Positions 13,372 to 18,066 of a stretch of 64,000 nucleotides of DNA are shown here, piece by piece; position 1 is the first letter of the stretch; each line of letters opens with the position of its first letter. The notes under the pieces were generated by a model, which was given only the letters and a program-made list of their open reading frames with translations, did not search any database and was not told where the DNA came from. The DNA comes from Dehalococcoidia bacterium (lineage in GTDB: Bacteria > Chloroflexota > Dehalococcoidia > SM23-28-2 > RBG-16-64-32): contig CAXXTF010000001.1 in the NCBI GenBank assembly GCA_963665775.2, forward strand, positions 128,001-192,000, in the 5' to 3' direction. The translations under genes and the position numbers were made by a program.

Positions 13372-14432
13372 GCCAGGAGAAGCCCTCGCAGCACGCTTAC
13401 GCCGCTGCCGGAGTCGATATCGACGCCGCCGAGCGGCTGGTCTCGCGCTTCGCTGATCTGGCCAAGCTGACCCGTCGCCCGGAGGTCCTTGCCGACGTGG
13501 GCCCATTCGGCGGCCTGTTCCGGCTGGGCTCCTACCGAGAGCCCGTCCTGGTGGCCAGCACGGATGGCGTCGGCACCAAGGTGAAGCTGGCCGCCCTGCT
13601 GGAGAAGTACCGCGGCATAGGCGAGGATGTCGTGAACCAGAACATCAACGATGTCCTCTGCGCCGGGGCGGAGCCGCTCTTCTTCCTCGACTACATAGGC
13701 AGCGCCAGCCTGCCGGACGAGGCCAAGGTCGAGCTGGTGCGAGGCGTGGCGGCGGCCTGCCGGAATGCGGGCTGCGCCCTCCTGGGAGGCGAGACGGCCG
13801 ACATGCCGGGCGTCTACGCCACCGGCGACTTCGACCTCGTGGGGTTCGTCGTCGGTGTAGTGGAACGGGAGGCCGTCATCGACGGTTCCGGCATTCGGGA
13901 GGGCGACATCCTGTTGGGGCTTCCCTCCAGCGGCCTGCACAGCAACGGCTTCTCCCTGGTGCGGAAGGTGTTCGGCGTGGGGATGGGCGGCGATCCGGAG
14001 GCGGAGAGGGCGGTGCTGTACGCCAACTTCCCGGGCCTGGGGATGACCCTGGGCGAGGAGCTGCTACGGCGCCATCGCTGCTACTACAACGAGCTGAAAC
14101 CCGTCCTGCCGCTGCTGAAGGGGATCGCCCACATCACCCAGGGTGGCCTGCCGGGGAACCTCCCTCGCATCCTGCCGGATGGCCTGGCAGCCCGCCTCGA
14201 CAAGCCTGCCCTGAGCCGGGCCGACCGTTCGGCCTGGCGGCCGCAGCCCCTCTTCCGGCTGATCCAGGAGCGCGGTAACATCGCCGAGGAGGAGATGTAC
14301 CGGACGTTCAACATGGGGCTGGGCATGGTGCTGGCCGTGGCCCCGGAGAACGTCGACGCCGTGCGCTCGCAGCTGCGGGACGCCCTGCTGGTGGGGCAGG
14401 TGGTGCGGGGAGCCGGCGTGGAGTGGGGCTAG
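13368..14432 (+). CDS. purM: Phosphoribosylaminoimidazole synthetase
   Basis: YAAAGVD, STDGVGTK, GGETADMPG, SSGLHSNG, HITQGG, TFNMG. Confidence 0.97.
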   Translation: MSQEKPSQHAYAAAGVDIDAAERLVSRFADLAKLTRRPEVLADVGPFGGLFRLGSYREPVLVASTDGVGTKVKLAALLEKYRGIGEDVVNQNINDVLCAGAEPLFFLDYIGSASLPDEAKVELVRGVAAACRNAGCALLGGETADMPGVYATGDFDLVGFVVGVVEREAVIDGSGIREGDILLGLPSSGLHSNGFSLVRKVFGVGMGGDPEAERAVLYANFPGLGMTLGEELLRRHRCYYNELKPVLPLLKGIAHITQGGLPGNLPRILPDGLAARLDKPALSRADRSAWRPQPLFRLIQERGNIAEEEMYRTFNMGLGMVLAVAPENVDAVRSQLRDALLVGQVVRGAGVEWG

Positions 14433-14434
14433 AC

Positions 14435-14839
14435 GTGCCCACGTTCCGCGTCTACTACGCCGAGCGGATGCCCCGCGGAGCCCGCGACTGGATGCGGATG
14501 TACGGACTGCGCCGCCCCGGCTCAGAGCCCGAGGAGACGCGCCACAGCGAGATAGAGTGGGAGGAGGAGGTAGAGGCGAGAAACCAGGCAGACGCGCTCG
14601 ACATCTTCTTCAGGGAACACACCACAGATCGCGCACAGGTGATGCGGGTGGACGAGGCGGGCCAGAGCCACAAACTGCTCGGTCTGGAGGATTACGATCC
14701 GGAGATCAGATACATCTGGATCGAAGACGACAAGCTGATGCAGTATCAGGGCATGGACGAGGCTACCGCGGGCATGGTCACCTGTCCTCTCTGCGGAGGC
14801 GCAGGCGAGGTGGCCCAGCAGTTCTTGGAAGAGGAATAA
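14435..14839 (+). CDS. Hypothetical acidic protein with C-terminal CPLCGGAG motif
   Basis: ORF fills the purM-purH gap, host-like codon usage. Confidence 0.65.
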   Translation: MPTFRVYYAERMPRGARDWMRMYGLRRPGSEPEETRHSEIEWEEEVEARNQADALDIFFREHTTDRAQVMRVDEAGQSHKLLGLEDYDPEIRYIWIEDDKLMQYQGMDEATAGMVTCPLCGGAGEVAQQFLEEE

Positions 14840-14854
14840 AGAGGAGAACCCGCT

Positions 14855-16384
14855 ATGATCGCCTTCATCTCTGTTTCCGATAGGACGGGGGTCCAGGAGC
14901 TCGCCCTCGCCCTGGCCGAGCTGGGGTACGATATCTACTCCACCGGCGGCACCCAGAGACACCTGGCGGAGGCGGGGCTGGCCGTTCACAGTATCTCCTC
15001 CCTCACCGGCTTCCCGGAGATCCTGGGCGGCCGCATCAAGAGCATCCACCCCATCCTCTACGGCGGCGTCCTCGCCCGTCGCGACCTGCCGGAGCACATG
15101 GAGGAGCTGCGGCGCAACGACATCCCGCTCATAGACCTGGTATGCGTGAACCTCTACCCCTTCCTGCAGACGGTGGCCTCCGGCGCCGGCCACGACGACT
15201 GCCTGGAGCAGATCGACATCGGCGGCCCGGCCATCATTCGCGCCGCCGCCAAGAACTATCCCTTCGTCCTGGTGCTGGTGGACCCGGCAGACTACGCGGA
15301 GGCGCTGGATCACCTGCGCACGAACGGCCTGCCCCCGGAGTTCCGGCGCCGCCTGGCCGAGAAGGCCTTCCAGCACACCGCCCACTACGACACGGCGATC
15401 GCCCAGTACCTGCGGGGCGACGAGGACAGGTTTCCCGACCGGATCACCATCGCTCTGGACAAGGCGCTCCGGCTGCGCTACGGGGAGAACCCCCACCAGC
15501 AGGCCGCCCTCTACCGCGAGGAGCGAGTGGGCCAGCCCCCGAGCGGCATCGCCGCCGCCGAGAAGCTGCACGGGCTGGAGCTCTCCTATATCAACACCAT
15601 GGATGCCGATGCGGCCTGGCGGGCGGTAACGGAATTCGGAGGGCCCACCGTGGTGATCGTGAAGCACGCTACGCCCTGCGGGATCGCCTCCCACGAGGAG
15701 ATCGCCGTCGCTTACCAGCGGGCTTACGACTCTGACCCCATCTCCCCTTTCGGCGGTATCATCGCCGCCAACCGCCCGGTCACCTGGGAGATGACGGAGG
15801 TGATGAAGGGGATGCGCTACGACGTGATCGTAGCCCCGGAGTACGAGGCGGCGGCACTGGAGCGATTGCAGAAGCGGCGCGACCTGCGCATCCTGCGGAT
15901 GCCGGAGGGAGAACCGGGACAGAGTCTGGAGTACCGCAGCGTGGCCGGCGGTCTGCTGGTGCAGGAGATCGACCGCATGGACGCCGAGGAGCTAGAGCTG
16001 CGGGTGGTGACGAAGCGGGCGCCCACAGCCTTAGAGCTGGCGGACCTGCGCTTCGCCTGGAGAGCAGTGAGGCACGTGAAGTCCAACGCCATCGTCATCG
16101 CCCGGGAACAGGCCACCGTCGGGATCGGCGGCGGCCAGCCTAATCGGATCAAGCCCGTGGAGCTGGCCGTCGAGCGGGCCAGCGAGAAGGCGAAGGGAGC
16201 GGTGTTGGCCTCGGACGCCTTCTTCCCCTTCGCCCGCAACGACGCCGTGGAGATCGCCTGCCGGGCGGGGGTGACCGCCATCATCCAGCCCGGCGGCGGC
16301 GTCCGCGACGAGGAGGCGATGGCGGTCTGCGATGAGTACGGCGTGGCGATGGTGTTCACGGGCGCGCGCGCCTTCCGCCACTAA
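14855..16384 (+). CDS. purH: Bifunctional AICAR transformylase/IMP cyclohydrolase
   Basis: ISVSD, STGGT, IDIGG, LRYGENPHQ, KSNA, SDAFFPF, IIQPGG, FRH end. Confidence 0.98.
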   Translation: MIAFISVSDRTGVQELALALAELGYDIYSTGGTQRHLAEAGLAVHSISSLTGFPEILGGRIKSIHPILYGGVLARRDLPEHMEELRRNDIPLIDLVCVNLYPFLQTVASGAGHDDCLEQIDIGGPAIIRAAAKNYPFVLVLVDPADYAEALDHLRTNGLPPEFRRRLAEKAFQHTAHYDTAIAQYLRGDEDRFPDRITIALDKALRLRYGENPHQQAALYREERVGQPPSGIAAAEKLHGLELSYINTMDADAAWRAVTEFGGPTVVIVKHATPCGIASHEEIAVAYQRAYDSDPISPFGGIIAANRPVTWEMTEVMKGMRYDVIVAPEYEAAALERLQKRRDLRILRMPEGEPGQSLEYRSVAGGLLVQEIDRMDAEELELRVVTKRAPTALELADLRFAWRAVRHVKSNAIVIAREQATVGIGGGQPNRIKPVELAVERASEKAKGAVLASDAFFPFARNDAVEIACRAGVTAIIQPGGGVRDEEAMAVCDEYGVAMVFTGARAFRH

Positions 16385-16511
16385 CGCAGAACGGCATCCC
16401 CTCCCGTCTCTGACCTACACCGTACCGAACCGATCGCCGGACGCTGATCGGCACGCCCGAGTCCGCCTGCTAGTAAACATTCGGCATCGGGAAGATTTCT
16501 GCACCTAACCC

Positions 16512-16555
16512 TTGACAACAGAACACTTGTGCGTCTATGATTAGCACAACTGTTC
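16512..16555 (+). promoter_or_regulatory. Sigma70-type promoter with two LexA/SOS-like boxes
   Basis: TTGACA (16512-17), 18 nt, TATGAT (16536-41); GAAC-ACTT-GTGC (16521-32) and GCAC-AACT-GTTC (16544-55), each one mismatch from GAAC-N4-GTTC. Confidence 0.7.
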
Positions 16556-16575
16556 CGCTACTAGCCTGGAGATCT

Positions 16576-16719
16576 ATGCCGATGGCCGCCAACAACATCG
16601 CGACTCAGCTACGCTTGCCCCTCTTCCGCAGCGCCCGCTGCCCGGACTGCGGCGGCCCGCTGGTCCACGGCGAGGGCTGCCTCTCCTGTCCGGTCTGCGG
16701 CTTCTCCCGCTCCGGCTAG
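16576..16719 (+). CDS. Small zinc-ribbon protein with QLxLPL clamp-binding-like motif
   Basis: GGAG SD; (MP)MAANNIATQLRLPLFRSARCPDCGGPLVHGEGCLSCPVCGFSRSG. Confidence 0.75.
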   Translation: MPMAANNIATQLRLPLFRSARCPDCGGPLVHGEGCLSCPVCGFSRSG

Positions 16720-16764
16720 CCAACAATAGACGAGGGAGGCACCACGGGGCTATGATGGCCATAG

Positions 16765-18066
16765 ATGTCAGATCAACGCCCCACGGTGGCTATCCTTACC
16801 CTGGGCTGCAAGCTGAATCAGGCCGACTCCGAGGCCATAGCCCGGCACCTGGTGAACAGCGGCGCGCGGGTCACGGACCGGCCTCTCCGCGGCGCCGACG
16901 CCGTTGTCATTAACAGCTGCTCCGTGACCCACGTGGCGGAGCGCAAGGCGCGGCATCTGGTCCGCCAAGCGAGACGTCTCTCGCCAGGGACACAGATCGT
17001 CCTCACGGGCTGTTATGCGGAGACCGCGCCGGCCGACATCGCTGCCCGCACCGGCGCCGACCTGATCCTCCGCAACCATGAGAAACACTCGATTCCCGAC
17101 TGGCTCCTGAAGCGGTTGGCGCAGAAGGGCGACCCGTCCGCCGGCTGCCCCACGCCCATGCAGAGCGGACTGCGGACGAGGGCCTTTATCAAGATCCAGG
17201 AGGGCTGCAACGAGATGTGCGCCTTCTGCATCGTCCCCCGTACCCGAGGCCGTGAACGCAGCGTGCTTATCCCCCAGGTGGTTGACCAGGCGCTGGAGCG
17301 CCAGACCGAGGGCGTGCTGGAGATAGTCCTCACGGGCACCCAGCTGGGCAACTACGGGCGGGACCTGGGCTGGACGGAGACTGGACCTCGTCCCCTGCTG
17401 GCGGCGCTGCTGGAGCGGACATCGGTGCCGCGGATCCGGCTATCGTCGCTGCAGGCCCAGGACATCTCGACCCCACTCCTAGAGCTGTGGAACGACTCGC
17501 GACTCTGCCCCCACTTCCACCTGCCCCTGCAGAGCGGCTCCGATGCCGTCCTCCGCCGCATGCGGCGCCGCTATAGCGCCGATGAGTTCCGGCGGGCGGT
17601 GGAGACGATCCGGGAGCGGATGCCGAACGCGGCCGTGACCACGGACGTCATCGCCGGCTTCCCCGGAGAGACAGACGCGGACTTCGAAGCCACCCTGCGG
17701 CTGTGCGACGACGTTGGCTTCGCTGCCGTTCACGCCTTCCCCTACTCGCGTCGGCCCGGCACGGGCGCCACCCTCATGGGCGATCAGCTCCCGCCACCGG
17801 TGAAGCGGTCTCGACTGGAACGGCTGCTGGCGGCGGGTCGGGCCTCCGCCGAGGCGTTCCGCCGGGGATTCCTGGGCCAAACCCTGCCCGTTCTGTGGGA
17901 GCAGAGGAAGGCAGGACGGTGGCAGGGATTGACCGCCAACTACATCCGCGTTTACACTTCCGCCGACGAGGAGTTGGCGAACCGGCTCAGCCCAACACGC
18001 CTGCTGGCCCTGGACGGCGAAGGCGTCGTCGGGCTGCCGGAGCGCACCGCGGCACGAAGCGCATGA
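16765..18066 (+). CDS. mtaB: tRNA t6A37 methylthiotransferase
   Basis: TLGCKLNQADSE, INSCSVT, IKIQEGCNEMCAFC, HFHLPLQSG. Confidence 0.92.
   Translation: MSDQRPTVAILTLGCKLNQADSEAIARHLVNSGARVTDRPLRGADAVVINSCSVTHVAERKARHLVRQARRLSPGTQIVLTGCYAETAPADIAARTGADLILRNHEKHSIPDWLLKRLAQKGDPSAGCPTPMQSGLRTRAFIKIQEGCNEMCAFCIVPRTRGRERSVLIPQVVDQALERQTEGVLEIVLTGTQLGNYGRDLGWTETGPRPLLAALLERTSVPRIRLSSLQAQDISTPLLELWNDSRLCPHFHLPLQSGSDAVLRRMRRRYSADEFRRAVETIRERMPNAAVTTDVIAGFPGETDADFEATLRLCDDVGFAAVHAFPYSRRPGTGATLMGDQLPPPVKRSRLERLLAAGRASAEAFRRGFLGQTLPVLWEQRKAGRWQGLTANYIRVYTSADEELANRLSPTRLLALDGEGVVGLPERTAARSA

Follow-up and report, generated by a model that had tools for sequence, protein, structure and literature searches.

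A conserved microprotein gene of Dehalococcoidia under predicted LexA control, with a zinc ribbon of the NrdJ-tail type and a candidate clamp-binding motif

Introduction

What is encoded in the 380 nucleotides (nt) separating purH from mtaB in a bacterium of the class Dehalococcoidia, and what is the meaning of two sites resembling the operator of the SOS repressor LexA that overlap a promoter located there? The question was raised by a stretch of 64,000 nt from assembly GCA_963665775.2 (contig CAXXTF010000001.1, positions 128,001 to 192,000), hereafter the window, where a reading of the letters alone (the original prediction) proposed a near-consensus promoter, two boxes deviating by one mismatch from GAAC-N4-GTTC, a Shine-Dalgarno (SD) sequence and an open reading frame (ORF) of 45–47 amino acids (aa), interpreted as a damage-induced peptide that combines a β-clamp-binding motif with the zinc ribbon of class II ribonucleotide reductase (RNR, NrdJ). 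The promoter, both boxes, the SD sequence, the ORF and the peptide reading were all found in place, and the gap holds a compact small gene (Table 1). Comparison with relatives makes the finding stronger than that prediction could know and points to a conserved microprotein family with predicted LexA operators, in a phylum (Chloroflexota) whose SOS response is almost unstudied. Here, we addressed whether the gene is real, whether LexA is likely to control it, and which of several possible partners (the sliding clamp DnaN, NrdJ, MtaB or another target) its product may have.

Results

A standalone gene conserved in Dehalococcoidia

Standalone peptides of 44–50 aa, each with an SD-like string before its start, are encoded at 13 loci in the genomes of 12 relatives; this early set comprised 17 loci, including three (L017, L019 and L020) without an orthologue in the correct frame. 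Scanning of one public genome per species gave 80 loci, nearly all labelled Dehalococcoidia, Chloroflexota or “Chloroflexia”, with a few metagenome-assembled genomes (MAGs) labelled otherwise, and a standalone ORF with its start was resolved in 73 of them, encoding orthologues of 33–63 aa. The seven loci left out are L054 and L090 (at a contig end), L097 (without a start by the rule used), L100 (a full-length NrdJ), and L096, L101 and L103 (without a ribbon by the pattern used). Entropy summed over the ribbon in 73 distinct orthologous DNA versions amounts to 8.4, 7.5 and 25.5 at codon positions 1, 2 and 3, respectively, the corresponding values for the N-terminal motif are 3.6, 2.4 and 10.7, and ribbon codons differ from the window copy by 530 synonymous and 375 non-synonymous changes. 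Since variation is concentrated at third codon positions, the gene appears to be translated, and the comparison indicates a real coding gene and not a fragment of NrdJ.

In a class-wide sample of 301 genomes (one of which, G274, is unpublished and carries no specific claim) the search matched 252, mixing standalone genes with full-length NrdJ tails. Among the matches listed, the standalone form was seen in about 60 genomes (table read by eye), and most of the others are NrdJ tails within open frames of approximately 800–1000 aa (E from about 1e-11 to 1e-5). The genome of the window and all 18 of the 18 sampled genomes of the same order are matched strongly, in each case within a short open frame. 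Some orthologues are surrounded by large open frames (228–630 aa), which were considered as possible fusions and turned out to be only GC-rich open frames. Thus the proposal of a conserved standalone gene is borne out: its homologues are not merely C-termini of NrdJ, and full-length nrdJ lies elsewhere in the genome.

A word-indexed protein search returned 37 short homologues named, where a name is given, “hypothetical protein” (in Dehalococcoidia or Chloroflexota MAGs), “UPF0148 Zn finger” and, once, “ribonucleoside-diphosphate reductase alpha chain”. The suggestion that gene callers would easily miss the gene therefore needs qualification, some annotators do call it. The ESM Atlas returned only “hypothetical protein” clusters. 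Full-text literature search found no description of this gene, in agreement with the original prediction that no described family with such architecture is known; one homologue carries the precomputed assignment PF28085.1, so that a bare family entry may already exist.

The operator and the SOS motif of the clade

A single box with one mismatch is not above chance and carries no meaning alone: the window holds 24 of them versus 16.0 ± 3.7 expected, and 3 of 100 shuffles reached the same number, while the 2.35-Mb genome contains 742 such boxes and 20 perfect ones. Box pairs 12–45 nt apart number only 12 in the genome, and four of these (counted by eye), including the microprotein locus and lexA, stand directly after TTGACA. 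The promoter of the microprotein gene fits the consensus at 11 of 12 positions, and the segment 16300–17000 contains two promoter-like sites versus 0.1 expected. Both boxes of the window together make up an inverted repeat with 12-nt arms, 92% complementary and 11 nt apart, so that the −10 hexamer is enclosed between the arms. Orthologous promoters repeatedly show TTGACA followed after approximately 3 nt by box 1 (its right half often being GTGC), then the −10 element, “TTA” and box 2.

Boxes with at most one mismatch were counted within 75 nt of the start at 72 orthologous loci having at least 100 nt of upstream DNA. At least one box is present in 70 of these promoters and at least two in 60, a perfect box occurs in 37, and 16 have two such boxes; among 4277 control windows of 75 nt taken from these loci, 60 contain at least one box and a single one contains at least two. 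Nine of the 12 loci missing from the two-box count show a box with two mismatches at the expected place, as read by eye. The box pair in its promoter context, with its conservation, is far above chance. The pair also persists where mtaB is not adjacent to the microprotein gene (L055, L082, L083, L089, L095 and L098, two boxes each).

The lexA gene is autoregulated in most bacteria, and its own promoter may therefore be used to identify the LexA site of the clade. Upstream of lexA in the genome of the window (C1:573965–574597, minus strand; C1 and C2 stand for contigs) we found TTGACA, a box with one mismatch, a −10 element and then a perfect GAAC-N4-GTTC. For lexA of this genome and 29 relatives, at least one box is present within about 200 nt upstream in 30 of 30 cases, a perfect one in 29 and at least two in 22, and the arrangement coincides with that of the microprotein gene, the box inside the −35/−10 spacer having one mismatch and another box following −10. 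This identifies GAAC-N4-GTTC as the LexA site of the clade. The imuB-like gene of the same genome has a perfect box between its −35 and −10 elements. Neither recA (C2:1286006) nor nrdJ (C2:1277163) of this genome has a box with at most one mismatch in the 330–400 nt upstream, so the predicted LexA regulon seems to be small and to exclude recA. Double boxes conserved among orthologues and sharing motif and layout with lexA make predicted LexA control of the microprotein gene well supported, and the boxes are conserved, as the original prediction expected, in these promoters and match the motif in those of the clade’s own lexA genes. Altogether we consider it highly probable that this is a real gene controlled by LexA. 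With boxes in its own genome at lexA, the imuB-like gene and the microprotein gene, and none at recA, the peptide looks like a core SOS output, and it would be such in a large group of uncultured bacteria from soil, sediment and groundwater. In practical terms, a gene of 36–50 aa named at most a hypothetical protein or a generic Zn finger proved to be recognisable from its regulatory DNA.

Reading of the boxes as an NrdR operator was rejected: the spacing of half-sites does not fit, and the same boxes are found at lexA. Several other promoters deserve mention as separate observations. In L012, L015, L065, L071, L079 and L094, which encode short forms of the peptide (see below), an additional one-mismatch box precedes the first by about 30 nt and is thus placed at approximately −90 from the start, just upstream of −35. 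A second promoter of like organization in the genome of the window (G000, C2:829703–829760; TTGACA, a box whose right half is GTGC, TATCCT and a hairpin holding another box) precedes small cysteine-rich ORFs and may belong to another SOS microprotein. Near-identical promoters with a perfect LexA box between −35 and −10 occur at C1:564256 and C1:565299 (minus strand) of G000 and adjoin an ORF of 487 aa, terminase-like on sequence inspection alone, giving this region the appearance of an SOS-controlled prophage-like module. Finally, at C2:451140 of the same genome a TTGACA promoter with two one-mismatch boxes stands ahead of an ORF of 402 aa.

The N-terminal motif and its fit to DnaN

The clamp-binding consensus is QLxLxL or QL[SD]LF. 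In the long forms of the microprotein, encoded at 35 of the 73 loci, T-Q-L-R-[LFM]-x-[LIM]-[FYLVS] stands four residues ahead of the first cysteine, and the pattern Q[LM][RK][LFM]x[LIM] likewise occurs in 35 of 73. Glutamine is invariant in 36 aligned long forms (alignment A3), and positions 2, 4 and 6 are occupied by L/M, L/F/M and L/I/M, respectively. In the window peptide the motif takes residues 10–17 of 47 within a flexible region near the terminus; in the AlphaFold model residues 1–20 have no secondary structure and a predicted local distance difference test (pLDDT) value of 67–68, compared with 86–89 for the ribbon. The motif survives in diverged copies of family f2, where ribbon cysteines have been lost and two LexA boxes, both perfect, remain, and it is absent before the ribbon from all full-length NrdJ tails inspected.

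Clients of the clamp are described in PMC3290774 as binding one hydrophobic groove by a motif of five or six residues near a terminus. Co-folding of the peptide with DnaN of the same genome (C2:88300–89415), performed with a family alignment, an alignment of DnaN and a zinc ion in three runs and three controls, gave an ipSAE of 0.63 (0.62–0.66 in separate runs) versus 0.02 for the best of the three controls; the runs share at least 88% of contacts, and the partner pLDDT is at least 66. The mark used is reached by 58 of 80 solved complexes and 2 of 110 mismatched pairs, a calibration that is only rough here owing to own alignments and the zinc ion. In the model, peptide residues 8–17 face DnaN residues 155, 172, 174–177, 244, 246, 249, 326, 328, 352, 354, 368 and 370–375, that is, the hydrophobic cleft between domains II and III beside the C-terminus where clamp clients dock. 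As modelled, the motif looks like a clamp ligand; actual binding we infer, and for the long forms we give it slightly better than even chances.

In having a short Q-L-x-L-x-L(F) in a flexible tail near the terminus, modelled into the same cleft of DnaN, the peptide resembles proteins with known clamp motifs (the Hda N-terminus, polymerases II, IV and V, and ImuB), but it differs from them in the lack of any enzymatic or AAA+ domain, in a cargo reduced to a ribbon of 27 residues and in arginine fixed at position 3. As an aside, the imuB-like protein of the genome has a QAAMF string near its C-terminus, maybe its own clamp motif.

Discussion

A probably LexA-controlled peptide that may occupy the clamp

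Computation showed that the gene exists and is conserved, how its operator is arranged, that the peptide resembles the end of NrdJ and that the motif fits the cleft of the clamp. On this basis we propose a LexA-repressed microprotein gene of Dehalococcoidia acting as follows. In an undamaged cell two LexA dimers would occupy the boxes bracketing the −10 element and shut the promoter; upon DNA damage, self-cleavage of LexA would allow synthesis of the 45–47 aa peptide, composed of a flexible tail with TQLRLPLF, four further residues and a compact Cys4 zinc ribbon of class II RNR type. The tail may then insert into the hydrophobic cleft of DnaN used by polymerases and other clamp clients, with the ribbon parked on the face of the clamp, and induction would change access to the clamp, with replication and translesion synthesis being slowed or their traffic regulated; a partner of the ribbon itself could possibly be brought to the clamp in the same way. 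The statement as a whole, a LexA-controlled microprotein that docks on DnaN and affects clamp use, is our favoured but tentative reading, standing a little short of an even chance.

Several points weigh against it. Many complexes of the clamp with peptides have been solved, and the model score may reflect likeness to those. Position 3 of the motif is a near-invariant arginine, a residue not known to be typical of clamp motifs, and the last position varies (F, Y, L, V or S). The absence of a box at recA makes the predicted LexA regulon unusual, and the tight linkage to mtaB described below has no place in the model. Above all, 38 of the 73 loci encode short forms (33–40 aa, a few longer) having a basic N-terminus and no QLxLxL motif; two LexA boxes are present in 30 of these 38, and mtaB lies downstream in 29 of 37. 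Since short forms without the motif keep the boxes and the ribbon, clamp docking is not a function common to the whole family. What is common is the LexA operator and a four-cysteine ribbon with an almost invariant CP-D-C-G-G-P-L-V-H-G-E-G stretch. Judged by their distribution, the clamp motif and the pair formed by the third and sixth cysteines (Cys3 and Cys6) behave as modules that come and go without regard to each other: copies of family f2 keep the motif but have no such pair, and those of family f6 show the reverse combination. Thus, from the suggestion that the peptide docks on DnaN by QLxLPL there remain a motif conserved in long forms and its modelled fit to the cleft, and generality for the family is lost.

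If clamp binding is true, this would be a natural clamp blocker of 45 aa, with bearing on pausing and re-routing of replication and on clamp-directed inhibitors. As a short product of a predicted LexA-repressed promoter, expected to bind a core machine, the microprotein resembles small SOS effectors (SulA, YneA, SidA, DinI and the UmuD2C checkpoint), although no relation in sequence or fold exists and its family occurs in Dehalococcoidia alone. Contact with DnaN and restraint of replication by a small protein are also exemplified by SocB, a clamp-targeting Caulobacter toxin belonging to a toxin-antitoxin pair, and by YabA of Bacillus, which binds zinc and is constitutive; neither is homologous to the microprotein, and neither is known to be controlled by LexA. 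YabA is listed as a partner of β and DnaA (Table 1 of PMC3290774), and umuD products are reported to bind the clamp and the α subunit of polymerase III (PMC4045847, PMC3384344).

The ribbon as a possible free-standing mimic of the tail of ribonucleotide reductase

The best-surviving alternative takes the ribbon, the part common to all family members, as the functional one. The C-terminal 26 residues of the peptide follow the pattern C-x2-C-x9-C-x2-C-x2-C-x4-C, and in the 60-aa reading of the ORF residues 20–59 align with positions 719–758 of the 759-position NCBIfam profile NF006417 (vitamin B12-dependent RNR) with E of 5.8e-8. This longer version itself, starting from ATG at 16537, was discarded, the start codon being inside the −10 hexamer and hence off the transcript, which makes its use unlikely. 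An exhaustive profile search yielded 653 proteins at E ≤1e-3, including NrdJ-sized proteins (723–1056 aa) ending in a like ribbon and numerous short ones, part of which are NrdJ fragments; full-length NrdJ-sized examples with this ending are P0108, P0130, P0140 and P0141. Hits among PHROG families are weak (best E about 0.012–0.013), the best including the C-terminus of an RNR family.

According to Loderer et al. (2017; PMC5704485), the cysteine-rich domain (CRD) of NrdJ comprises 150–220 aa with six conserved cysteines at its end, and in NrdJd of S. nassauensis Cys 1, 2, 4 and 5 are proposed as zinc ligands and Cys 3 and 6 as an electron-shuttling pair. All six are required there for turnover with tris(2-carboxyethyl)phosphine (TCEP), neither thioredoxin nor glutaredoxin serves as reductant, a search for the native one had no success, and electrons were seen to pass between subunits; a separately expressed CRD failed to restore activity of the truncated enzyme, and some lineages encode the CRD as a separate gene, nrdJb. 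The ribbon of the microprotein has the six-cysteine spacing given in this source and shares with the CRD and split NrdJb the array C-x2-C-x9-C-x2-C-x2-C-x4/5-C with its flanks, CP[DE]CG ... EGC..C..CG[YF]S.C. Thus the assignment of the ribbon to the NrdJ-tail type stands on the profile match, on the NrdJ-sized proteins and on this spacing. The differences are that the microprotein holds only about the last 27 residues of the domain, is neither fused to nor encoded beside an RNR (its neighbours being purH and mtaB), and has its own, predicted LexA-controlled, promoter along with the N-terminal QLxLxLF.

At 72 of the 73 resolved loci (all but L057) the C-terminus has the full set of six cysteines. 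Five are present in the window copy, where TCC at 16711–16713 encodes serine in place of the sixth cysteine of orthologues. A contig of run X7, from a study other than that of the probable source run, spans the stretch with four listed differences, all outside the ORF; as the serine codon agrees in this independent DNA run, serine at the sixth position is probably real and not an assembly error. In 175 ribbons from protein set P0001–P0183, which are related and therefore do not give independent counts, the pair of Cys3 and Cys6 is complete in 141, missing altogether in 30 and reduced to one member in four, the window copy representing the rare “Cys3 only” case. That these two are kept or lost together fits a functional pair and would lend independent evolutionary support to the redox pair of class II RNR proposed by Loderer et al. 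(2017).

It may be imagined that the peptide is a free-standing mimic of the RNR tail acting on NrdJ or on the reductant of the tail, the clamp motif being secondary or a tether to the replisome. Such a mimic could work in two modes, delivering electrons in trans and so raising synthesis of deoxynucleoside triphosphates (dNTPs) after damage, or, for copies without Cys3 and Cys6, blocking the docking of the tail. Besides the profile match, the PHROG hit and the shared ending of NrdJ-sized proteins, this idea gains from the equality of spacing with the NrdJd array, for which inter-subunit transfer was seen and no native reductant was found, and from the joint fate of Cys3 and Cys6. But the NrdJ of the same genome (C2:1277163–1279691, on another contig than the microprotein) keeps its full cysteine-rich tail, so that the small gene is no replacement for a lost one and complementation is not needed; nrdJ has no LexA box, the separately expressed CRD gave no activity to the truncated enzyme in PMC5704485, and a redox role cannot be general with Cys6 missing from the window copy and one or both redox cysteines from f2 copies. 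We regard this explanation as unlikely, albeit not negligible.

Both ideas may be merged into a damage-induced, clamp-tethered copy of the RNR redox tail that plugs into DnaN while its ribbon engages NrdJ or its reductant, coupling dNTP supply to clamp-marked sites of replication and repair, with forms devoid of Cys3 and Cys6 acting as a throttle. We judge this rather unlikely; if true, class II RNR would gain its first regulator under LexA control, and nucleotide reduction its first link to the clamp made by a bacterial microprotein. Whatever its partner, the family presents a small soluble version of the NrdJ tail for the question of the physiological reductant of class II RNR.

Linkage to mtaB and the features of the locus

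Features of the locus are collected in Table 1. The strong association with mtaB was not seen in the original prediction. On the same strand and within 700 nt downstream, mtaB is present at 60 of the 70 loci whose downstream DNA is long enough (31 of 33 long forms and 29 of 37 short ones), and three further loci have it upstream instead, in opposite orientation; purH is no constant neighbour of the microprotein gene in orthologous loci. MtaB itself diverges among the loci, down to about 53% identity. In the window a scan detected no terminator-like site between the small gene and mtaB, a stop codon stands in frame directly before the ATG of mtaB, and the string GCTATGATGGC recurs before mtaB in relatives. 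On these grounds mtaB may be transcribed from a promoter of its own as a leaderless mRNA, with SOS read-through as a possible further source of transcripts. Contigs from metatranscriptomes (X19, X20) match parts of purH and mtaB without mismatch and none lies on 16410–16766, the uncovered part being no evidence. No Rfam family reaches the gathering score in 16300–16900, where one sub-threshold chance match has E of 0.27, so that no riboswitch or leader RNA family is indicated.

Table 1. Features of the purH–mtaB interval and its borders in the window (positions counted from the first letter of the window)
Feature	Position	Strand	Remark
purH	14855–16384	+	upstream neighbour
−35 hexamer TTGACA	16512–16517	+	same place in the orthologous loci displayed
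LexA box 1, GAACACTTGTGC, one mismatch	16521–16532	+	between −35 and −10; position conserved in orthologues, often with GTGC right half
−10 hexamer TATGAT	16536–16541	+	promoter-site scan; spacer of 18 nt
LexA box 2, GCACAACTGTTC, one mismatch	16544–16555	+	just 3′ of −10, in the 5′ leader; mirrors box 1
Shine-Dalgarno GGAG	16568–16571	+	SD-like string also 5′ of the start in listed orthologues
Microprotein ORF, 47 aa	16576–16719	+	alternative start at 16582 gives 45 aa; stop codon 16717–16719 included
TQLRLPLF, candidate β-clamp-binding motif	16603–16626	+	in the low-confidence, probably disordered N-terminal tail; 35 of 73 loci
Zinc ribbon of NrdJ C-terminal type, C-x2-C-x9-C-x2-C-x2-C-x4-(C)	16639–16716	+	NF006417 match; Ser replaces the sixth Cys
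Second promoter-like site TAGACG-18-TATGAT	16727–16756	+	ends 8 nt before the mtaB ATG
mtaB, tRNA ms2t6A methylthiotransferase	16765–18066	+	TIGR01579, 370 bits versus cut-off 357

The neighbourhood may be functional or may be preserved by tight packing. In the functional case the peptide could partner MtaB, as a small zinc or thiol partner of a radical-SAM enzyme, or the unit could put mtaB under SOS control, the small gene being an upstream ORF on a LexA-controlled transcript that reads into mtaB and raises tRNA ms2t6A after damage. The adjacency in 60 of 70 loci in spite of the divergence of MtaB, the three loci with the opposite arrangement, the inconstancy of purH and the lack of a terminator-like site all agree with this, as does protein P0050 (114 aa, a single cluster), in which the ribbon runs into the N-terminus of MtaB. 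On the other side, mtaB appears to have its own promoter-like site, which at the 3′ end of the small gene could keep the gene order by tight packing without a functional link; boxes and microprotein persist where mtaB is not adjacent; no small partner of MtaB-family enzymes is known; and P0050, a single fragment, is either a natural fusion or an artefact of assembly or gene calling. A role through MtaB thus seems to us quite unlikely.

Still less room, in our opinion, is left for an SOS effector with some other target, which we hold very unlikely. Here the ribbon would bind nucleic acid or another protein, as an inhibitor of cell division or topoisomerase for example, and TQLRLxLF would be a degradation signal or another docking signal and not a clamp motif. 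The strongly basic N-termini of short forms are in line with this, and small SOS-induced inhibitors are common. In line with it, too, solved structures offer no relative: the fold search gave generic zinc ribbons from RNA polymerase and ribosomal proteins with E of 0.11 at best, and the sequence search zinc knuckles alone with E of 0.022 at best, among them YacG (E 0.68). Specific similarity to families of such inhibitors is lacking, however: no Pfam or NCBIfam model reaches its curated cut-off for the microprotein and PADLOC returns nothing for it, and the modelled fit of the motif to the clamp cleft appears specific. As for a decaying 3′ fragment of nrdJ without function of its own, to which the similarity confined to the NrdJ tail and the lost sixth cysteine might point, it is extremely improbable and already contradicted by standalone orthologues with their own promoter, SD sequence and start in 73 of 80 loci, by the coding constraint seen at codon positions, by NrdJ tails inspected without QLxLxLF and by the intact nrdJ elsewhere in the genome.

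Further upstream in the window, between a purM-like gene and purH, an ORF of 138 aa (14423–14839, plus strand) belongs to no Pfam or NCBIfam family and ends in CPLCGG.

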